IMG/VR virus record: IMGVR_UViG_2737471845_000027
Source of the DNA: a virus
Lineage: Duplodnaviria > Heunggongvirae > Uroviricota > Caudoviricetes
DNA: 9,631 nt
Reading direction: 5' to 3' (one strand)
Shown here piece after piece: positions 1 through 9,631 of this stretch; position 1 is the first letter of the stretch, and each line of letters starts with the position of its first letter. The notes beneath the pieces were generated by a model. It worked only from the letters and a program-made list of their open reading frames with translations, had not been told where the DNA came from and ran no database searches. The translations under genes were made by a program, and so were the position numbers.

Positions 1-234
1 CAGAACCGCAGGGATCAGTTTCTGAATTTTTTCCCTTTGCGCTTTCGTTTCACCTTTCAACCAACGGTGATAGATATTCTGCTGATTGTTCCAGTCCTTG
101 CCTGGTACAAGGGGCAATTCGCCGCCCCCCTGGCGCAGATATTCTTCAGTAATTGCGTTAGCGACCCACGCCTGCCCTTTTTCGGCTGCCAGGGCTAACA
201 ACACTGATTCGATGTGCTCATGCCTGATTTTCAT
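1..234 (-). CDS. ydaT: YdaT-like protein (cII-analogue of Rac-type prophages), N-terminal 78 codons; gene continues off the left edge
   Basis: Reverse strand from ATG at 234..232 translates MKIRHEHIESVLLALAAEKGQAWVANAITEEYLRQGGGELPLVPGKDWNNQQNIYHRWLKGETKAQREKIQKLIPAVL, which I recognise as the YdaT N-terminus. AGGAG lies about 9 nt upstream on the minus strand. Not in the ORF track because it is truncated. Confidence 0.75.
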   Translation of the reverse strand, partial: MKIRHEHIESVLLALAAEKGQAWVANAITEEYLRQGGGELPLVPGKDWNNQQNIYHRWLKGETKAQREKIQKLIPAVL

Positions 235-267
235 GAATCAACCGCTCCTATGCTGTTTTCGCTATGC

Positions 268-477
268 TTACCGTCTGGGGGGGAATACATCGTCAAGTCC
301 ACAATGAGCGCCAAGCCGATTAAGGGTAGAAACAATTTTTCTGCACTCCTCTAGCCCAGGGGTACGAAAATTTGCTTCGTAATTTGCCAGTCGGCTTTGT
401 ATCCACCCTAACTGAACAGCGAGTTGTCTTTGAGACAGCCCAAGCTGTTTTCGATATGTTGAAATTTTGTTCATCAT
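268..477 (-). CDS. ydaS: Cro-like HTH (XRE family) regulator, YdaS-like
   Basis: 69-aa track ORF with an HTH signature (LGLSQRQLAVQLGWIQSRLANYE). AGGAGG at complement 480..485 favours the second ATG (474) as start. Divergent from the repressor gene and immediately upstream of ydaT. Confidence 0.75.
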   Translation of the reverse strand: MMNKISTYRKQLGLSQRQLAVQLGWIQSRLANYEANFRTPGLEECRKIVSTLNRLGAHCGLDDVFPPRR

Positions 478-571
478 TACCTCCTGTTTCTATTATTCAC
501 ATTTCGTGAGCGAGATCAACTACAGATACGTGAGTAACACTAATTTCACACATCGTGATAAAATCGGAGCT
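478..571. promoter_or_regulatory. Divergent ydaS / racR promoter-operator region with two copies of TCAC-N5-GTGA
   Basis: tcacatttcgtga at 497..509 and tcacacatcgtga at 546..558. Minus-strand promoter candidate: TTGATC (complement 513..518), 16-bp spacer, AATAAT (complement 491..496). Plus-strand TAAAAT at 559..564 sits 7 nt before the racR ATG. Confidence 0.5.
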
Positions 572-961
572 ATGAAAACCATTGCAGAACAAATAGGCGA
601 GCGACTAAAAGCCACTCGCCTAAATCGAGGATTAAGTATGGGAAACTTGGCAAAACTATGTGGTTGGTCAGGTTCTTCTCGTATTGCTAACTACGAAGCT
701 GGCACCAGGAGTGTGGGGGCTGAGGATGCGATCATCCTCGGCCAAGCACTAGGCATTTCCCCCGCAGAATTAATGTTCGGTGAACAGGAAAACACTTACT
801 CGTGGTTAAATGATAACCAGAAAAAAATGCTAGAACTGTTTAATCAGCTCCCAGGATCGGAACAAGCACGCATGATTGATCTGTTCGAAATCCGTCTTCA
901 AGAGCTTGATGAGTATGTGGAAAAATATCTAAGAAGCAGGCAACAGAAAAAATCCTCCTAA
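572..961 (+). CDS. racR: Prophage immunity repressor, HTH XRE family, no S24 peptidase domain (RacR-like)
   Basis: Track ORF 467..961; the first 35 codons overlap the operator-rich intergenic DNA, so I place the start at ATG 572 (MKTIAEQIGERLKATRL...). HTH at about residues 20-60. Start is uncertain. Confidence 0.8.
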   Translation: MKTIAEQIGERLKATRLNRGLSMGNLAKLCGWSGSSRIANYEAGTRSVGAEDAIILGQALGISPAELMFGEQENTYSWLNDNQKKMLELFNQLPGSEQARMIDLFEIRLQELDEYVEKYLRSRQQKKSS

Positions 962-990
962 GCCTTTAATCTCCCTCGATTCCAATCAAA

Positions 991-1021
991 AGGCTCTCGC
1001 TATTAGCGAGGGCTTTTTTTT
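991..1021 (+). terminator. Rho-independent terminator downstream of racR
   Basis: GC-rich hairpin ggctctcgc-tatta-gcgagggc followed by a run of nine T (1013..1021). Confidence 0.7.
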
Positions 1022-1047
1022 GTCCATCAAAAATCCAAAAGCAACAT

Positions 1048-1090
1048 TGCTCACATATTGAGTTGACAATTCACTCACGATGTGTGAGCA
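1048..1090. promoter_or_regulatory. Operator-like inverted repeat enclosing a TTGACA -35 hexamer, upstream of ydaF-ydaG
   Basis: Perfect 8-bp inverted repeat tgctcaca (1048..1055) / tgtgagca (1083..1090). TTGACA at 1063..1068. Inner site ctcacgatgtgtgag (1074..1088) fits TCAC-N5-GTGA. Confidence 0.35.
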
Positions 1091-1272
1091 TTTGTCATAT
1101 CCAAACAACGCCCCACCAGAGAACGGCAGGACAATACCTCGAGTTATCCAGCCACTGAACAGGGCTAAGTAGCCAGCCTGAGGCATACGAACATGACGGC
1201 AGTTGTTGATTGATACAAAGCGCAGTAGATAAAACGTTCCGCCACCCGGCGTTAAGGGGAAATGAGGTCAAC

Positions 1273-1428
1273 ATGGATACTATCGATCTTGGCAACAACG
1301 AATTTCTGGTATGTGGCGTGTTTCCCAATCAGGACGGCACATTCACCGCCATGACGTATACCAAAAGCAAAACGTTTAAAACCGAAGCTGGCGCACGTCG
1401 CTGGTTGGAAAGAAATTCAGGTGAGTGA
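1273..1428 (+). CDS. ydaF: Small Rac-prophage protein, 51 aa (YdaF-like)
   Basis: Internal ATG of track ORF 1210..1428 preceded by GAGGT (1265..1269). Product MDTIDLGNNEFLVCGVFPNQDGTFTAMTYTKSKTFKTEAGARRWLERNSGE. The ydaF versus ydaG name is assigned by size and could be swapped. Confidence 0.7.
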   Translation: MDTIDLGNNEFLVCGVFPNQDGTFTAMTYTKSKTFKTEAGARRWLERNSGE

Positions 1429-1429
1429 T

Positions 1430-1558
1430 ATGGATTTCGACACAGTCATGGAAAAGGCTTACGAAGAATACTTCGAAGGCCTTGCCGAAGGCGAAGAAGC
1501 TCTCAGCTTCAGCGAATTTAAACAGGCGCTTTCCAGTTCGGCAAAAGCTAACAACTGA
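1430..1558 (+). CDS. ydaG: Small acidic Rac-prophage protein, 42 aa (YdaG-like)
   Basis: ATG at 1430 lies 1 nt after the ydaF stop, suggesting translational coupling. Product MDFDTVMEKAYEEYFEGLAEGEEALSFSEFKQALSSSAKANN. Too short for the ORF track; the overlapping 86-aa track ORF 1425..1685 is in a different frame. Confidence 0.65.
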   Translation: MDFDTVMEKAYEEYFEGLAEGEEALSFSEFKQALSSSAKANN

Positions 1559-1573
1559 GAAGTTTATGATGGA

Positions 1574-1648
1574 ATTGAGAGTTTGTTTCAAACTCTCAAT
1601 AAACCAGAGGCAGGTAAGGGGCGTTAAATTATTGCTTGAGAGCAATAA
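1574..1648. terminator. Two AT-rich hairpins between convergent ydaG and sieB; possible non-canonical terminators
   Basis: 12-bp stem at 1574..1600 (attgagagtttg / caaactctcaat, 3-nt loop) and 8-bp stem at 1629..1648 (ttattgct / agcaataa). Neither has a flanking T-run. Confidence 0.3.
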
Positions 1649-1650
1649 GA

Positions 1651-2184
1651 TCACTCAATCTCACCGCTATAGGCATTCCATCTGAGCATGAGGGCACGCC
1701 AGAAAATATCGTTTATGTGCAAAACGCAGTATGGATTTTCGTCGGGAAGGAGTTGCCCTTCCATGGGGAGCAAAATATTAGCAGATACCAGTTTTTTTAT
1801 ATCAGAATCATTGCGTACAGCATGGATCACAGGATAGTTCCTCGATAATGCCGTAATAAGAATTTTTTTCTGACCCGCAGTCAAGGAATCGATAACTGCA
1901 TTGATATGACTGATTATTTTTTGTTCTCTTGTATTGTTCCGGTGACTTCGCCAGATCTTACGAAGAAATAAAGCTAAACGTTGGAGATTTATAGCCAGCA
2001 CAAAAGAAAAGGCAAAAACGAATACCGGGTAAATATAAGGAATGCTGATTTTGTCTTGAACATACTCCGGCACAGAATCAGGCATAAAGAGCAATATCAA
2101 AACAAAGATAATAAGCATATACATAAGGCGCTCTAAGGGTTCGTTACTGAATAACTTGCTCAACAAGCCGAATACATCAGGCAT
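1651..2184 (-). CDS. sieB: Superinfection exclusion protein B (membrane protein)
   Basis: 177-aa track ORF with a hydrophobic N-terminal region (MLIIFVLILLFM...VFVFAFSFVLAINL) that I recognise as SieB. Opposite strand to the early-left operon. Start could be an internal Met (residue 21 or 23). Confidence 0.85.
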   Translation of the reverse strand: MPDVFGLLSKLFSNEPLERLMYMLIIFVLILLFMPDSVPEYVQDKISIPYIYPVFVFAFSFVLAINLQRLALFLRKIWRSHRNNTREQKIISHINAVIDSLTAGQKKILITALSRNYPVIHAVRNDSDIKKLVSANILLPMEGQLLPDENPYCVLHINDIFWRALMLRWNAYSGEIE

Positions 2185-2719
2185 ATTAATAACTCTCTAC
2201 TGTAAGGGTATTAAAATGCTATCACAAACTCTCGCTGTAGGGGTATAGCCGAGACCACCGAGCCTGAAGTGGTAAAAAGACAGGCACACAACACGAAAGC
2301 GCACGGCGAGGCTGTTAGTTCATAAATGGTCTGTCGTTAAATTTACGTCGACCGTGCGCTTCCGGTTGTGGCACTCCGCGAAATGGCGCGGTGGTAAGTA
2401 TGGCGGGGTTATTCATTCCCAGTTGAGGACACCGGGTTGTCAGGTTGACCATACGCTTAAGTGACAACCCCGCTGCAACGCCCTCTGTTATCAATTTTTT
2501 GGTGACGTTTGGCGGTATCAGTTTTACTCCGTGACTGCCCTGCCGCCCCTTTTTAAAGTGAATTTTGTGATGTGGTGAATGCGGCTAAGCGCACGCGGAA
2601 CAGTTAAAAGCATCAGTGTTATGGGTGGATTATCCGGCGTTAATTGTTAACTGGTTAACGTCACCTGGAGGCACCAGGCACCGCATCAACAAAGTTCATT
2701 TGTAAAAATGGAGATAATT
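2185..2719. promoter_or_regulatory. 535-bp non-coding region between divergent sieB and kilR (pL-equivalent position)
   Basis: No ORF longer than about 33 codons on either strand. GC-rich core at roughly 2280..2600. 9-bp inverted repeat gggttgtca (2434..2442) / tgacaaccc (2462..2470). Weak stem then ccccttttt at 2511..2554. Candidate sieB promoter on the minus strand near 2200..2240. Confidence 0.4.
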
Positions 2720-2941
2720 ATGATTGCACATCACTTCGGAACTGATGAAATACCACGTCAGTGTGTGACTCCTGGTGATTATGTTCTTCATGAAGGCCGG
2801 ACATATATCGCCTCGGCAAACAATATTAAAAAGCGAAAACTTTATATTCGTAACCTGACTACAAAAACATGCATTTCTGACTGCATGATTAAAGTCTTCC
2901 TCGGTCGTGATGGTTTACCTGTAAAGGCGGAGTCATGGTGA
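2720..2941 (+). CDS. kilR: KilR, Rac prophage killing protein (cell division inhibitor)
   Basis: Track ORF 2708..2941; GGAG at 2710..2713 is 6 nt before ATG 2720. 73-aa product [16 protein letters not shown]... recognised as KilR. Confidence 0.85.
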
Positions 2942-3111
2942 TGACTAAGAAAATAAAATGTGCTTACCACCTTTGCAATAAAGGAATTGAAGAAAGCAAA
3001 AGCATTAAAAGACCACTTCATTTCATGCGTGGAGTTATCCCAACGACGGAAATGAAAAAATATTGTAGTGAAAATTGTGCCGAAAAAGACCAGATGGCAC
3101 ACGAACTTTAA
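2941..3111 (+). CDS. ydaE: YdaE-like small Cys-rich protein, 56 aa
   Basis: ATG 2941 overlaps the kilR stop (TGATG). Product [56 protein letters not shown] with two Cys pairs. Too short for the ORF track. Confidence 0.75.
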   Translation: MTKKIKCAYHLCNKGIEESKSIKRPLHFMRGVIPTTEMKKYCSENCAEKDQMAHEL

Positions 3112-3184
3112 TTAACTGACTATGCGAAACTGAATTTATGCCAGCAATGGCAGGGATTCGCTCAACCTTAATTAAGGAGAAAAA

Positions 3185-3430
3185 ATGATTACCAATTATG
3201 AAGTCACTGTTGTAACTACCGATGACATTGTTCACGAGGTTAATCTGGAAGGAAAGCGTATTGGCTACGTGATTAAAACAGAAAATAAAGAAACCCCATT
3301 CACTGTGGTTGATATTGACGGCCCATCAGGCAACGTAAAAACACTTGATGAAGGTGTCACAAAAATGAGTCTGGTTCACATCGGAAAGAATCTGCCCGCA
3401 GAAAAAAAGCCGGATTTCTGGCAACTCTGA
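3185..3430 (+). CDS. racC: RacC-like protein
   Basis: 81-aa track ORF with AAGGAG 6 nt upstream; sequence recognised as RacC, directly upstream of recE. Confidence 0.8.
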   Translation: MITNYEVTVVTTDDIVHEVNLEGKRIGYVIKTENKETPFTVVDIDGPSGNVKTLDEGVTKMSLVHIGKNLPAEKKPDFWQL

Positions 3431-3455
3431 TTGCAATGAAATTAAAAGGTGAAAT

Positions 3456-3487
3456 CTGAAAAAAGAAAGCCTGCACAACGTGCAGGC
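3456..3487 (-). terminator. Minus-strand rho-independent terminator in the racC-recE intergenic region
   Basis: Perfect hairpin gcctgcac-aac-gtgcaggc (3469..3487). On the minus strand it is followed by TTTCTTTTTTC (complement of 3458..3468). No T-run on the plus strand. Confidence 0.45.
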
Positions 3488-3557
3488 CTGAGTGAAGAAC
3501 CTGGGACATTTATTCATCACTCGCAGTAATTTTAATCTGAGTTGAGGTTAAAAAACA

Positions 3558-6209
3558 ATGAGCACAAAACCACTCTTCCTTTTACGGAAAGCGAAAAAAT
3601 CATCCGGTGAACCTGACGTCGTCCTGTGGGCAAGCGACGATTTTGAATCAACCTGTGCCACTCTGGACTACCTGATCGTTAAGTCAGGTAAAAAACTGAG
3701 CAACTATTTTAAAGCTGTTGCCACAAATTTTCCTGTCGTTAATGACCTTCCCCCTGAAGGTGAGATCGATTTTACCTGGAGTGAACGCTATCAACTCAGC
3801 AAAGACTCCATGACCTGGGAACTAAAACCGGGAGCAGCGCCAGACGACGTTCACCATCAGGAGGATGCACCGGAAACCGAAGAACCGACGGGAGGCCAGG
3901 AAGAAAACGCGCAGGCAGACGCCCACGAGGATTGCCAGGATTGCGAAGTCTCTGTAGCCACTTTGCGGTTCACACAGCGTCTTCTGCACATTTTTACGTA
4001 TGCAGCCGGGGATCGAAAATACCTGCATCATGCCACCCGTGAACAACGCAAACACATTACTGCTCTTGAGATGGATCAGGAAAACAGCTATGTCCAGAAT
4101 CTGCTGTTGGCCATACGCAGCATGGCAGAACCGACAACTCTGGATAATGCCGCCCTGCTCCGCCTGACTGATGCAATTAAGGCAGTGTTCTCTATCACGA
4201 AAAAACATCAGCCCTATGAATTTAAGAATTTCATTTCAGCCTGGCTGGATACCGAACACATTGATCGCGGTCTTCTGACAAAGGAATGGCGAAAAGGGAA
4301 TCGTGTTTCACGCATCACTCGCACGGCTTCCGGTGCTAATGCTGGCGGCGGGAACCTCACCGATCGCGGCGAAGGTTTCGTCCACGATCTGACGTCACTG
4401 GCGCGCGATGTAGCCACTGGCGTACTGGCCCGTTCAATGGACGTGGACATCTATAACCTTCATCCGGCACACGCTAAACGCATTGAGGAAATTATCGCTG
4501 AAAATAAACCACCCTTTTCTGTTTTCCGCGACAAATTCATCACCATGCCTGGCGGGCTGGATTATTCCCGCGCCATCGTGGTTGCGTCCGTGAAAGAAGC
4601 ACCAATTGGGATCGAGGTCATCCCCGCACACGTCACTGAATATCTGAACAAAGTACTGACTGAAACCGATCATGCCAACCCTGATCCGGAAATCGTGGAT
4701 ATTGCCTGCGGTCGCTCCTCGGCCCCGATGCCGCAGCGAGTAACAGAAGAAGGAAAACAGGACGATGAAGAAAAACCACAACCATCTGGCGCAATGGCAG
4801 ATGAACAGGCAACGGCTGAAACAGTGGAACCGAATGCAACTGAACATCATCAGAACACGCAGCCGCTGGATGCTCAGTCACAGGTAAATTCTGTTGATGC
4901 GAAATATCAGGAACTGCGGGCAGAACTCCATGAAGCCCGGAAAAACATTCCATCAAAAAATCCTGTCGATGCCGATAAATTGCTTGCTGCATCACGTGGT
5001 GAATTTGTTGACGGAATTAGCGACCCGAACGATCCGAAATGGGTTAAGGGGATCCAGACTCGCGATTCTGTGTACCAGAACCAGCCAGAAACGGAAAAAA
5101 TCAGCCCGGATGCGAAACAACCTGAGCCAGTAGTGCAACAGGAACCGGAAATAGTCTGCAATGCCTGCGGTCAGACTGGCGGGGATAACTGCCCTGACTG
5201 TGGTGCGGTGATGGGCGACGCAACATACCAGGAAACATTCGGTGAAGAGAATCAGGTTGAAGCTAAGGAAAAAGATCCGGAGGAAATGGAAGGCGCTGAA
5301 CATCCGCACAATGAGAATGCTGGCAGCGATCCGCATCGCGATTGCAGTGATGAAACTGGCGAAGTCGCAGATCCCGTAATCGTAGAAGACATAGAGCCAG
5401 GTATTTATTACGGAATTTCGAATGAGAATTACCACGCGGGTCCCGGTGTCAGTAAGTCTCAGCTCGATGACATTGCTGATACTCCGGCACTGTATTTGTG
5501 GCGTAAAAATGCCCCCGTGGACACTACAAAGACAAAAACGCTCGATTTAGGAACCGCTTTCCACTGCCGGGTACTTGAACCGGAAGAATTCAGTAACCGC
5601 TTTATCGTAGCACCTGAATTTAACCGCCGTACAAACGCCGGAAAAGAAGAAGAGAAAGCGTTTCTGATGGAATGCGCAAGCACAGGAAAAACGGTTATCA
5701 CTGCGGAAGAAGGCCGGAAAATTGAACTCATGTATCAAAGCGTTATGGCTTTGCCGCTGGGGCAATGGCTTGTTGAAAGCGCCGGACACGCTGAATCATC
5801 AATTTACTGGGAAGATCCGGAAACAGGAATTTTGTGTCGGTGCCGTCCGGACAAAATTATTCCTGAATTTCACTGGATCATGGACGTGAAAACCACAGCG
5901 GATATTCAACGATTCAAAACGGCTTATTACGACTACCGCTATCACGTTCAGGATGCATTCTACAGTGACGGTTATGAAGCACAGTTTGGTGTGCAACCAA
6001 CTTTCGTTTTTCTGGTTGCCAGCACAACTGTTGAATGCGGACGTTATCCGGTTGAGATTTTCATGATGGGCGAAGAAGCAAAACTGGCAGGCCAGCAGGA
6101 ATATCACCGCAATCTGCGGACCCTGGCTGACTGCCTAAATACCGATGAATGGCCAGCTATTAAGACGTTATCACTGCCCCGCTGGGCTAAGGAGTATGCA
6201 AATGACTAA
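3558..6209 (+). CDS. recE: Exodeoxyribonuclease VIII (RecE)
   Basis: 883-aa ORF with GAGGT RBS. N-terminus [26 protein letters not shown] and C-terminal nuclease region ([13 protein letters not shown]...) recognised as RecE. Internal Cys4 motif [15 protein letters not shown]. Confidence 0.95.
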
Positions 6210-7035
6210 GCAACCACCTATCGCAAAAGCCGATCTGCAAAAAACTCAGGGAAACCGTGCACCAGCAGCAGTTAACGATAAGGATGTGCTGTGCGTGATT
6301 AACAGCCCGGCAATGAAAGCGCAACTGGCAGCAGCTCTGCCACGTCACATGACAGCGGAACGCATGATCCGCATTGCTACAACAGAAATCCGTAAAGTAC
6401 CGGAACTAAGAAACTGTGACTCGACGAGTTTTATCGGTGCCATCGTACAGTGTTCACAGCTCGGACTTGAGCCAGGTAGCGCCCTCGGTCATGCATATCT
6501 GCTACCGTTCGGCAACGGAAAAGCAAAAAACGGTAAGAAGAACGTACAGCTGATCATCGGTTATCGCGGCATGATCGACCTTGCCCGTCGATCAGGTCAA
6601 ATCATCAGTCTGTCAGCTCGTGTTGTCCGTGAATGTGATGAATTCAGCTATGAACTTGGCCTTGATGAAAAACTGGTTCATCGTCCCGGTGAAAACGAAG
6701 ATGCCCCTATAACCCATGTCTATGCTGTTGCAAAACTGAAAGACGGAGGAGTGCAGTTTGAAGTCATGACCCGCAAACAGGTAGAAAAAGTTCGCGACAC
6801 ACACAGCAAGGCGGCAAAAAACGCAGCGTCAAAAGGGGCGTCGTCCATCTGGGATGAACACTTTGAAGACATGGCCAAAAAGACAGTGATACGAAAACTG
6901 TTCAAGTATCTGCCGGTATCTATTGAAATCCAGCGTGCAGTATCGATGGATGGAAAAGAGGTGGAAACAATTAATCCAGACGACATATCGGTTATAGCCG
7001 GGGAATACAGTGTAATCGATAATCCAGAAGAATAA
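6202..7035 (+). CDS. recT: Recombinase RecT (single-strand annealing protein)
   Basis: Track ORF 6145..7035; true start taken as ATG 6202 ([23 protein letters not shown]...) with AAGGAG at 6188..6193. Overlaps the recE stop by 8 nt. Confidence 0.9.
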
Positions 7036-7079
7036 TCCAGCCTGGCGGTGTAATGCACCGCCAACGTGAGATAGTTTTT

Positions 7080-7286
7080 ATGACAAAAACTTTGAGATAT
7101 GACGATGTTAAACCATGTCCGTTTTGTGGTTGTCCATCAGTAACGGTGAAAGACATTTCAGGATATTACCGGGCAAAATGCAACGGATGCGAATCCCGAA
7201 CTGGCTATGGTGGAAGTGAAAAAGAAGCGCTCGAAAGATGGAATAAACGAACCACTGAAAATATTAATGGAGGCGTTCATGTATAA
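7080..7286 (+). CDS. ralR: RalR / Lar (restriction alleviation protein; type I toxin DNase)
   Basis: Internal ATG of track ORF 7053..7286. 68-aa product MTKTLRYDDVKPCPFCGCPSVTVKDISGYYRAKCNGCESRTGYGG... with two Cys pairs, recognised as RalR. Confidence 0.85.
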   Translation: MTKTLRYDDVKPCPFCGCPSVTVKDISGYYRAKCNGCESRTGYGGSEKEALERWNKRTTENINGGVHV

Positions 7287-7467
7287 AATTACCGCTACAA
7301 TTGAAAAGGAAGGTGGCACTCCTACTAACTGGACAAGATATTCAAAATCTAAACTAACGAAATCAGAATGCGAAAAAATGCTCTCAGGTAAAAAAGAAGC
7401 AGGCGTTTCCAGAGAGCAGAAAGTAAAACTGATAAATTTTAATTGCGAGAAACTTCTGTCCTCGTGA
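7279..7467 (+). CDS. ydaC: YdaC-like small protein
   Basis: Track ORF 7207..7467; GGAGG at 7270..7274 is 4 nt before ATG 7279 (MYKITATIEKEGGTPTNWTRYSKSK...). Overlaps the ralR stop by 8 nt. Start could instead be ATG 7267. Confidence 0.65.
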   Translation: MYKITATIEKEGGTPTNWTRYSKSKLTKSECEKMLSGKKEAGVSREQKVKLINFNCEKLLSS

Positions 7468-7573
7468 GTTGCATTATATCCAAATTAGAACTTCATAGCT
7501 GATTATTAAAAATCAATCACGTCCGCCAGTATTCTGTATATTTACTGGCGGTCATATCGTAAGAGGTATGGCA

Positions 7574-7855
7574 ATGAATCTTGTGACACTCAAAACGTGG
7601 GGGAAACTCAGATATCCGGATAATCCACCATCAATATCAACGCTGAGACGATGGGCAAGGAATGGAAACATTTATCCTGCACCTGAACTACACGGGAGGA
7701 GTTACAGGGTGGTTCCGGAGGCTTTCTATATCAACCCAAATAAGGTTGATACCGATATAACACACCATCAGCCTAATGGGCGACAAGGGAGAGACAGTCC
7801 GTTACTGGAGAAGTTAAAACATGCAGCGGAAAAAATACGATCCCAATTTGCCTAA
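7574..7855 (+). CDS. xis: Excisionase (lambda Xis-like)
   Basis: Track ORF 7568..7855; AAGAGG at 7561..7566 favours the second ATG (7574). Motif ISTLRRWARNGNIYPAPELHGRSYRVVPEAF resembles lambda Xis. The 3' end overlaps the int start, as in lambda. Confidence 0.75.
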   Translation: MNLVTLKTWGKLRYPDNPPSISTLRRWARNGNIYPAPELHGRSYRVVPEAFYINPNKVDTDITHHQPNGRQGRDSPLLEKLKHAAEKIRSQFA

Positions 7856-8897
7856 AAACTTAACATATCGAAGGAGGGACAAAGCATATTACTGGCGCAA
7901 CCCTCTGACGAAAGAAGAATTTACACTAGGTAAAATTTCAAGAAGAGATGCAGTAGCGCAGGCAATTGAAGCAAATCATTATATATACAAAAACTACTCT
8001 CCTGCTGCCTTAATTGAAAAGCTTAAAGGGTTCGACTCATTTACTATGGCAGACTGGATTGAACGTTACAAAACGATTCTTATAAGGAGAAAAGTGTCCA
8101 GAAATACTTATAAAATCCGGGTAAATCAACTGGAGACAATAAAAGAAAAATTGGGAGAGATTTTACTGACAGAAATAACCACTCGCCATATTGCCGAGTT
8201 TCTTGATTTGTGGATTGAAGGAGGGAAAAACACAATGGCAGGATCAATGCGTTCTGTGTTGTCTGATATGTTTCGCGAGGCCATTGTTGAAGGACGTATA
8301 TCTCAAAATCCAGTCACGCCAACAAGAGCACCGAAAATAGTAGTTACAAGAGAACGACTGAAACTAAAGACATACAACTGCATCAGGGAGGCAGCAGATC
8401 AACTTCCGGCATGGTTCCCATTAGCTATGGATTTAGCCCTTGTAACAGGACAACGTCGCGAAGACATAACGAATATGCGGTTCAGTGATATTTATGATGA
8501 CCGTCTCCACATCAGGCAAATTAAGACAGGAATGATGATTGCTATCCCTCTGTCACTCAGCCTTCCTGTCGCTGGTCTACGGCTTGGTACAGTAGTTGAA
8601 CGATGCCGCCTGGTAAGCCGGGGAGATTATCTAATCAGTGCCGGGATTAGAAAAAACAGCCCTGACGGCAGCATTCACCCGGATGGCCTGACAAAAAAAT
8701 TTGTCGCAGCCAGAAAATTAACAGGTATCCAGTTCAGTGAAAACCCACCAACTTTTCACGAGATCAGAAGTCTGGCTGGACGATTGTACAAAGAAACATG
8801 TGGAGAAGAATTTGCCCAGCGCCTACTTGGTCACACATCGGAGAAGACAACAAAAATGTATCTTGATGAGCGAGAAAAAACGTACTTACTGCTCTGA
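7821..8897 (+). CDS. int: Tyrosine site-specific integrase (lambda Int family)
   Basis: 358 aa. Conserved blocks [12 protein letters not shown] (Arg), [10 protein letters not shown] (His-x-x-Arg) and [13 protein letters not shown] (His and catalytic Tyr). Last gene before the host junction. Confidence 0.9.
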
Positions 8898-8962
8898 TTT
8901 TAACGTAAATGGATTGTTAAATGTATATTGGTTGTGATATAACCAAAAAAGACCGGAATACA

Positions 8963-8994
8963 GAAATTCGAGTAAATTTCGGGGAATTTCGGGG
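8963..8994 (+). repeat. Three tandem 10-11-bp direct repeats; candidate Int arm-type (P'-like) sites
   Basis: gaaattcgag (8963..8972), aatttcgggg (8975..8984), aatttcgggg (8985..8994). Located between int and the predicted core, as P'1-P'3 are in lambda attP. Confidence 0.5.
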
Positions 8995-9002
8995 AGACGC
9001 TT

Positions 9003-9015
9003 GCAACTAATTGAT
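9003..9015 (-). promoter_or_regulatory. IHF-consensus site (H'-like) between the arm repeats and the predicted core
   Basis: Minus-strand sequence aATCAAttagTTg matches WATCAANNNNTTR exactly. Confidence 0.4.
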
Positions 9016-9028
9016 TTTAAATACAATT

Positions 9029-9131
9029 AAAAAGAGACCGAATACGATTCCTGTATTCGGTCCAGGGAAATGGCTCTTGGGAGAGAGCCGTGCGCTAAAA
9101 GTTGGCATTAATGCAGGCTTAGTTGCCTTGC
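9029..9131 (-). ncRNA. sdsR: SdsR (RyeB) sigma-S-dependent small RNA
   Basis: Minus strand reads GCAAGGCAACTAAGCCTGCATTAATGCCAACTTTTAGCGCACGGCTCTCTCCCAAGAGCCATTTCCCTGGACCGAATACAGGAATCGTATTCGGTCTCTTTTT, which I recognise as SdsR. 3' terminator hairpin spans 9036..9062, followed by a T-run. Confidence 0.8.
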
Positions 9132-9134
9132 CCT

Positions 9135-9145
9135 TTAAGAATAGA
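9135..9145 (-). promoter_or_regulatory. Sigma-S-type extended -10 element for sdsR
   Basis: Minus strand TCTATTCTTAA, close to the sigma-S -10 consensus TCTATACTTAA, ending 4 nt before the SdsR 5' end. Confidence 0.55.
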
Positions 9146-9218
9146 TGACGACGCCAGGTTTTCCAGTTTGCGTGCAAAATGGTCAATAAAAAGCGTGGTG
9201 GTCATCAGCTGAAATGTT

Positions 9219-9289: not shown

Positions 9290-9631
9290 TTAACAGAGTT
9301 TTTCAGCTCGTTCTATAAACGGTGCCAGACTCATTTTTTCGCCGGGATTGTTAGGATCATCAATCTGAATCACCGAAATGGGTTGGGCTTTAGTCTTCCC
9401 ACTGGCAACTTCCTTTTGTGCGATATCGTTTAAAGGATACTGCACGAGGGTACTTGGGTTAATGGCATACAAAGCATTACCCGGTCTGCAAGTCAGCATC
9501 ACCTCTTCGCGATTAAACGCCCATTTGTCTTTACCCACTTCAAAACGACTGACGGTAATCACCTGCGGTGCAGCCAGCGCCGCTGCAGAACTGGTGAGTA
9601 ACAGAAACGTCAGAATACTTTTTTTCATCAT
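9290..9631 (-). CDS. yebY: YebY-like secreted protein with Sec signal peptide (host chromosomal gene)
   Basis: 113-aa ORF. N-terminus [22 protein letters not shown] is a signal peptide with an AxA cleavage motif. Sequence recognised as YebY. Start codon sits at the window edge, so RBS and promoter are off-window. Confidence 0.85.

Follow-up and report, generated by a model that had tools for sequence, protein, structure and literature searches.

Why should a prophage with the recombination block of the Escherichia coli K-12 prophage Rac lie beside an integrase that resembles that of lambda, and at a chromosomal site other than ttcA? The question is raised by a stretch of 9,631 nucleotides (nt) of viral DNA (IMG/VR record IMGVR_UViG_2737471845_000027), the whole of which we call the window, and which is 100% identical to positions 2-9632 of contig JUDN01000005.1 of the E. 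coli draft assembly GCA_000798515.1. The contig starts one base before the window, inside ydaT, so that only the int-proximal part of the prophage is covered. The original prediction, made from the sequence alone, saw a Rac-type immunity and recET region joined to a lambda-type xis-int pair, and proposed a module exchange of the integration cassette. Our analysis indicates that the window very probably belongs to a mosaic, Rac-like lambdoid prophage of E. coli, whose int-proximal 9 kb it covers together with the host flank, and that the int swap is one of at least four module joins within these 9 kb. Four modules may be distinguished: an immunity region of the type of phage pPE4 (1-1260), Qin-type ydfA/ydfB and DicF segments flanking a SieB gene (about 1232-2700), a Rac-type kilR-recET-ralR-rcbA block (2547-7516), and a lambda-family xis-int-attP cassette (7517-9059).

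The proposal of a lambda-like integrase holds. The int gene (7821-8897, + strand) encodes a lambda-family tyrosine integrase of 358 amino acids (aa) with the domains PF09003 Arm-DNA-bind_1 (28.1 bits, cut-off 22), PF22022 Phage_int_M (41.3 bits) and PF00589 Phage_integrase (61.8 bits), and the alignment of this protein with lambda Int spans 347 aa at 39% identity (E 3e-84) and pairs the six catalytic residues of lambda (R212, K235, H308, R311, H333 and Y342) with R213, K236, H313, R316, H338 and Y347 of the window protein. Upstream of int, and overlapping it by 35 nt, lies xis (7574-7855, +), whose product belongs to the lambda Xis family (PF07825 Exc, 52.1 bits against a cut-off of 23, E 6.5e-14) and is 29% identical to lambda Xis. 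Lambda, and also HK022 and mEp235, share with the window the arm-binding N-domain, the core-binding and catalytic domains and the alignment of the catalytic residues, and in lambda too xis lies upstream of int and overlaps it, with attP next to the 3' end of int; in contrast, sequence identity reaches 39-41% in Int and 29% in Xis, core sequence and candidate arm sites differ, and lambda targets the gal-bio attB site, whereas the target here is the terminator of a small RNA (sRNA). The possibility that K-12 IntR is essentially the same integrase did not materialize, as BLASTP gave no match of Int or Xis to K-12 IntR or XisR, which belong to other Pfam families (XisR is a DUF1233 protein and IntR carries Arm-DNA-bind_2). 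The xis-int cassettes of the window and of strain R1 are 100% identical in nucleotides. At 7523-7551, 7 nt past the module boundary and just upstream of xis, CCGCCAGTA and TACTGGCGG form an inverted repeat of 9 bp around a loop of 11 nt; the equivalent place in K-12 Rac is taken by another inverted repeat, an imperfect one.

The exchange of the cassette is directly shown by alignments to present-day relatives. To the left, the window is of the ttcA type: many assemblies have a gene for exactly this 883-aa RecE beside XisR/IntR and ttcA, and in all six contexts that were inspected it is followed by RecT, DUF1187 (RcbA), DUF1233 (XisR), an Arm-DNA-bind_2 integrase and TtcA. Over 2547-7516, the window matches ttcA-resident Rac prophages (L009-L014 and L016) along 4981 bp at 99.2% identity, with about 10 differences between 2750 and 7250; unlike the window, these prophages continue into XisR, IntR and ttcA, have another repressor and are without the DicF/SieB segment. 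One of them, L016, shows no difference to the window over 6900-7456, after which mismatches follow at 7457, 7468, 7476, 7480, 7488 and 7510, and in L009 position 7457 is likewise the first mismatch after 7221. To the right, the window is of the sdsR type: compared with the sdsR-resident prophage of R1, there are 26 mismatches in 7107-7389, the last of them at 7389, and none from 7390 to at least 9100. The switch between the two parents thus falls at 7390-7456, inside rcbA/RalA, in sequence that is common to both, and therefore is best read as a homologous crossover. It is to be kept apart from the boundary between Rac-type sequence and cassette at 7516/7517, where the alignments of K-12 Rac, L009-L014, L016 and L017 all end and where most matches stop (query position 267) in the genomes that contain ralR-rcbA. 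This module boundary is common to hundreds of genomes and is older than the crossover.

The partners would have been a ttcA/IntR-type Rac prophage and an sdsR/lambda-Int-type phage, recombining in rcbA/RalA, and exchange may have taken place between co-resident or superinfecting lambdoid elements through homologous recombination in their conserved segments. Recombination of this sort is the standard model of lambdoid mosaicism, and the transferred block itself encodes the RecET recombinase pair. How often the outcome is met was surveyed in 5426 complete E. coli genomes. The ralR-rcbA pair is present in 1920 of them, and in 228 it runs on into this lambda-type xis; the xis-int cassette itself occurs in 233 genomes, among them O26, O103, O111, O157:H7 and O55:H7, and the K-12 xisR-intR cassette, covered to at least 80%, in 1824. 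The cassette swap is real, but common and of the textbook kind, that is, routine lambdoid mosaicism and not a peculiarity of this prophage.

The place of integration is the terminator of sdsR. K-12 Rac adjoins ttcA (annotated K-12 region; PMC4632033), as the original prediction had it, with its attachment site in the 5' end of that gene, whereas the host flank of the window consists, in agreement with the original prediction, of the gene for the sRNA SdsR/RyeB (9029-9128, - strand; full-length match to Rfam RF00111, 116.4 bits) and the host gene yebY (9290-9631, -; Pfam DUF2511/YebY), with the body of SraC/RyeA at 9025-9169 on the + strand (Rfam RF00101, 178.9 bits). In alignments with the empty K-12 locus (pphA, ryeA/sdsR, yebY) and with two lysogens, host homology begins at 9028, and from there to 9631 the window is 98.5% identical to K-12; upstream of 9028 is phage sequence. 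By aligning the int-proximal junction with the empty K-12 site, both R1 junctions and the attP of pPE4, the attachment (att) core was placed at 9028-9059, present as a single copy in the window and corresponding to 2604-2635 of the K-12 locus (L005), or the last 31 nt of sdsR plus one base. The K-12 attB core reads TAAAAAGAGACCGAACACGATTCCTGTATTCG. In R1, a 41.5-kb prophage lies between pphA and sdsR, its pphA-side junction reading ...GAACACGATTCCTGTTTTCG and its int-side junction ...GAATACGATTCCTGTATTCG, and the 32-bp core is common to both of these and to the window. Two single-nucleotide polymorphisms within the core, T9043 from the phage and A9055 from the host, bracket the exchange to ACGATTCCTGT, so that the boundary of prophage and host falls within 9044-9054; the predicted prophage end at 9062 was about right.

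This core overlaps a pair of inverted 10-mers (9036-9045 and 9053-9062) that surround a 7-bp spacer or loop, GATTCCT (9046-9052), and together form the SdsR terminator, one half from the phage and the other from the host. In the lysogen the hairpin has 11 pairs, with one U.G pair changed to U-A. The sRNA gene sdsR stays intact because the phage carries a copy of its 3' end, and after integration the SdsR 3' end looks functional again. A 7-bp spacer between inverted sites is the geometry of a lambda-type core; most likely, the terminator loop GATTCCT serves as the overlap region, and the terminator half-sites GACCGAATAC and GTATTCGGTC are candidate core-type Int sites. On this basis, Int would act as a heterobivalent tyrosine recombinase that joins attP to the last ~31 nt of sdsR, with its N-domain on arm repeats, its C-terminal domains on the two terminator half-sites and strand exchange over the 7-bp spacer between these; both stem arms of the terminator would double as inverted core sites, the phage arm would restore the SdsR terminator, and Xis would assist excision, as for lambda.

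Candidates for the arm-type Int sites are two tandem AATTTCGGG repeats at 8975-8993 (+), in the int-proximal arm. These are the only two copies of the motif in the window, and the 49.9-kb R1 locus has three, all within the two att arms, with two in the int-proximal arm and one in the distal arm; the motif is also found in the attP of pPE4. The predicted attP is made of the int-proximal arm, the core with both phage alleles and the distal arm, and is intact in PP818812.1 ('vB_Apl-pPE4'), where it lies between the tail-fibre genes and int with the core at 46270-46301 of locus L008. The record names Actinobacillus pleuropneumoniae as the host of the phage, yet the genome is Rac-like and of E. coli type and has the E. 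coli sdsR terminator as its attP core, and the host label looks doubtful. In the source strain of the window, the far prophage end is expected to hold pphA, the ryeA promoter, the core TAAAAAGAGACCGAACACGATTCCTGTTTTCG and a distal arm with AAAATTTCGGGAC.

What the insertion leaves of the neighbouring genes follows from the geometry of the site. In K-12, ryeA starts 37 nt upstream of the core, with pphA beyond. The insertion lies 37 nt into ryeA, and therefore the ryeA promoter and pphA are displaced to the far prophage end, while at the junction, as the comparison of 9028-9169 with 2567-2838 of L005 shows, phage sequence stands where K-12 has the promoter of ryeA and the initial 37 nt of RyeA. 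A consensus scan upstream of 9028 for a phage sigma-70 promoter in place of that of ryeA found none in the right position; by eye, a TTGCAA-15 nt-TACAAT arrangement upstream of 9028 is sub-optimal, and we claim no promoter there. In K-12, transcription of ryeA interferes with that of sdsR, and expression of pphA comes from read-through that starts at the sdsR promoter (PMC6610125). With the sigma-70 ryeA promoter and pphA moved more than 40 kb from sdsR, lysogens may therefore over-produce SdsR, lose normal RyeA and uncouple pphA. We tentatively propose, at somewhat less than even weight, that an E. coli host has its SdsR/RyeA/pphA circuit rewired when a phage of this family lysogenizes it, with more of the toxic sRNA SdsR, no normal RyeA and a pphA uncoupled from its main promoter, and also acquires a DicF and KilR pair acting on FtsZ. 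The RyeA/RyeB part of such an effect is reported for Salmonella PhiW104 in what PMC7380047 relays of it, and in the literature we found no E. coli test of the effect of lysogeny on SdsR, RyeA and pphA.

The middle of the window is of the Rac type. In K-12, the order is intR-xisR-rcbA-ralR-recT-recE-racC-ydaE-kilR-sieB-ydaF-ydaG-racR-ydaS-ydaT, and the window has kilR-ydaE-racC-recE-recT-ralR/RalA-rcbA in the same order and orientation as one contiguous block, with 90% nucleotide identity to K-12 Rac over 2547-3859 and 91% over 4263-7516; SieB-family and DUF1391 genes also stand in matching positions. The genes of the block are all on the + strand: kilR (2720-2941; 96% aa identity to K-12, NCBIfam FtsZ-inhibitor family, 162 bits), ydaE (2935-3111; 73%), a racC-like gene (3185-3430; 91%), recE (3558-6209; 883 aa, Pfam Exonuc_VIII and PDDEXK DUF3799, 84%), recT (6202-7035; 277 aa, Pfam RecT, 79%), the toxin gene ralR (7092-7286; NCBIfam RalR equivalog, 157 bits against a cut-off of 113, 92%) and rcbA/ydaC (7279-7467; 62 aa, PRK09750, 137 bits, 98%). 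On the - strand, at 7285-7463, lies the sRNA antitoxin RalA, antisense to ralR (Rfam RF02694, 217.6 bits, gathering score 170). The rcbA gene ends with a TGA stop at 7465-7467 where K-12 has CGA, which gives 62 aa instead of the 69 aa of K-12, and the short form is also called in ttcA-resident and O103 prophages. Between the two stretches of K-12 identity, the middle of recE (3860-4262) has no similarity to K-12 recE. The same middle is common to the O103, pPE4 and ttcA-resident L009 prophages, and therefore it is a replaceable internal segment in the dispensable N-terminal part of RecE.

To the left of this block, the claim that every gene from ydaT to ydaC matches Rac in the same order did not hold as a whole. 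The order from kilR to rcbA stood, as did the 5' end of ydaT (78 codons, 1-234, -), which is cut by the contig end, has the N-terminus of K-12 YdaT and is 94% identical to K-12 in nucleotides over 1-240. The claim of Rac-type immunity did not survive comparison: 241-1108 has no nucleotide similarity at all to K-12 Rac, and by BLASTP neither of the two regulators encoded there matches K-12 RacR or YdaS. One is a cro-like helix-turn-helix (HTH) protein of 69 aa, not of the YdaS type (268-477, -; Pfam HTH_3), which also gave no alignment to DicC; the other is a prophage repressor of 129 aa, XRE/DicA-like and not of the RacR type (572-961, +; Pfam HTH_31/HTH_3). K-12 YdaS is a YdaS_toxin/P22_Cro protein, and no match to these Pfam families was found among the regulators of the window. 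The repressor is 28% identical to DicA of Qin and scores 51.2 bits on the DicA subfamily model (NCBIfam PRK09706), below its cut-off of 101, and thus is no member; it probably works like a cI/DicA-type HTH repressor outside that subfamily. Its allele was found only on this one contig sequence, recorded for three samples. Next come a ydfA/ydaF-like gene (1273-1428, +; Pfam DUF1391) and a ydfB-like gene (1430-1558, +), both Qin-type alleles: over 1232-1562, identity to K-12 Qin reaches 92% and that to Rac ydaF 84%, the ydaF region 1109-1409 is 76-84% identical to K-12 Rac in nucleotides, and the YdaF-like protein 86% identical to K-12 YdaF. The ydaG gene is missing from the window.

A SieB-family superinfection exclusion protein of 177 aa follows (1651-2184, -; Pfam SieB, E 5e-15), 35% identical to K-12 SieB, and the region of the 5' end of the gene (2103-2303) is 78% identical to K-12 Rac in nucleotides. 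The identical SieB allele is found in prophages at three sites (loci L015-L022) with three integrases and at least four repressor types, the sites being yebY/sdsR with the 358-aa lambda-type Int, ttcA with IntR, and the Qin locus with a 426-aa Arm-DNA-bind_2 integrase. Then comes the sRNA DicF (2497-2548, +; Rfam RF00039, 71.9 bits, gathering score 48), in a segment (2275-2700) that is ~92% (91.5%) identical to K-12 Qin; K-12 DicF scores 76.7 bits on the same model, and its predicted fold is identical to that of the window DicF. DicF lies directly upstream of kilR, at the position of KilS in K-12 Rac, and a single operon thus holds the Qin sRNA that targets ftsZ and, in place of dicB, the Rac protein that inhibits FtsZ. 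Qin of K-12 (dicA-ydfA-ydfB-ydfC-dicF-dicB) is thus alike in its ydfA-ydfB and dicF regions and, distantly, in its repressor; unlike Qin, the window has kilR after DicF and not dicB, an oppositely oriented sieB for ydfC, and a cro-like gene unrelated to dicC. The left part of the window is equally composite in its nucleotide matches: 1-1260 is 97.5% identical to pPE4, and for 1116-2700 the matches, at 94-97% identity, are prophages that occupy three different loci of the chromosome.

Other accounts of the locus have to be weighed against this reading. A K-12-type Rac prophage, RacR/YdaS immunity included, that differed only in a replaced integrase cassette would fit the gene order, with repressor, cro and ydaT on one side and kilR through rcbA on the other; yet the region 241-1108 and its regulators, of other Pfam families, the lack of ydaG, and the Qin-type ydfA/ydfB and DicF make it very improbable, and the true RacR/YdaS version with this int is the prophage of strain R1. 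True Rac immunity was ruled out by the nucleotide and BLASTP comparison of the regulators with K-12 Rac. We give almost no credence to the idea that the join of rcbA and xis is an assembly chimera of two prophages: the source assembly is a draft, and the contig does end inside the prophage, but the identical rcbA-to-xis junction recurs in the 228 complete genomes, inspected closed chromosomes among them, and also in a phage genome record, and on this recurrence a chimera was ruled out. That the cassette was joined in this lineage by illegitimate recombination exactly at 7516/7517, and not by a crossover in rcbA, is improbable, if less so than the other two. The abrupt stop at 7516 of the similarity to every IntR-type Rac prophage speaks for it; against it, 7457-7510 already carries the polymorphisms of the sdsR lineage, at six positions that differ from the otherwise identical L016, and the window agrees perfectly with R1 from 7390; both put the switch of parents to the left of 7457, inside shared sequence, and a boundary common to hundreds of genomes is older.

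More weight, though still on the doubtful side, goes to a decayed and immobile remnant like K-12 Rac, in which the cassette would be a fossil. The rest of the prophage lies outside the window, and many Rac-like elements are defective (PMC4632033, PMC6379469); but the ~15 genes of the window are all intact, Int keeps every catalytic residue, Xis, arm repeats and core are intact, and the full-length close relatives are the 41.5-kb prophage of R1 and a 47.5-kb genome that was deposited as a phage. We thus suppose that the element may be active at present. The reading of a mosaic prophage with an exchanged cassette and an attachment site in sdsR has points against it as well: the putative arm-type and core-type binding sites are recognized by pattern, a single prophage end is at hand and the break of the contig in ydaT limits what can be said of completeness and inducibility, and a handful of comparators does not fix the direction and number of the historical exchanges.

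Among known systems, K-12 Rac differs from the window in RacR/YdaS, ydaG and KilS, and the window in turn has the extra ydfB-like gene, DicF and the replaced recE middle. The prophages at sdsR/yebY (R1, O103 RM8385, and those of O26, O111, O157 and O55), together with pPE4, share the xis-int-att cassette at 96-100% identity and the same sdsR junction; pPE4 is alike in the immunity region and the intact attP too, and its identity to the window is 94-98%. The O103 prophage is unlike the window in having another repressor, and R1 in having a true racR/ydaS and a truncated recE fused to gam-bet-exo. In R1 (L004/L006; L006 43892-47631), a shortened RecE-family gene is followed by gam-bet-exo (lambda Red), which replaces the 3' end of recE and recT, and this is a recombination-module hybrid inside the same prophage family. 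At most 82% of the window is covered by any one complete genome; the particular combination of modules is new, and the kind of combination already known. As for the site, Rac, Sp10 and CP-933R are at ttcA, and a recE-bearing Rac-like relative is at potB in CFT073 (PMC4632033). The ryeA/ryeB pair is known as a phage insertion hot spot, and, in the account that PMC7380047 gives of Balbontin 2008 (also PMC3603311), PhiW104 attaches in the last 23 bp of ryeB and alters the 5' part of ryeA. Salmonella PhiW104 is thus alike in having its att in the 3'-terminal bases of ryeB/sdsR, inside ryeA, and in replacing the 5' part of ryeA; it is unlike in its host species, and the likeness rests on the attachment site. 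Our literature searches turned up nothing that specifically names sdsR/yebY, in E. coli or O157, as a place where Rac-like prophages attach.

The locus illustrates cleanly how lambdoid prophages exchange their integration cassettes through homologous recombination in the conserved genes beside them. 'Rac' or 'Rac-like' names a set of shuffled modules, not a lineage tied to ttcA, and annotation pipelines should not use the recET block to infer attachment site or immunity type. In about 4% of the complete E. coli genomes, strains of O26, O103, O111, O157 and O55 among them, the sdsR terminator is occupied by a prophage, and this may alter the regulation of SdsR, RyeA and pphA; beyond such bookkeeping, the importance of the case is little. 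Finally, in locus L019, at ~2271-4363, genes for tail-fibre assembly and invertase genes, and not sdsR-yebY, come after the lambda-type int and the att core, an arrangement that points to prophages in tandem at one site or else to a secondary site.

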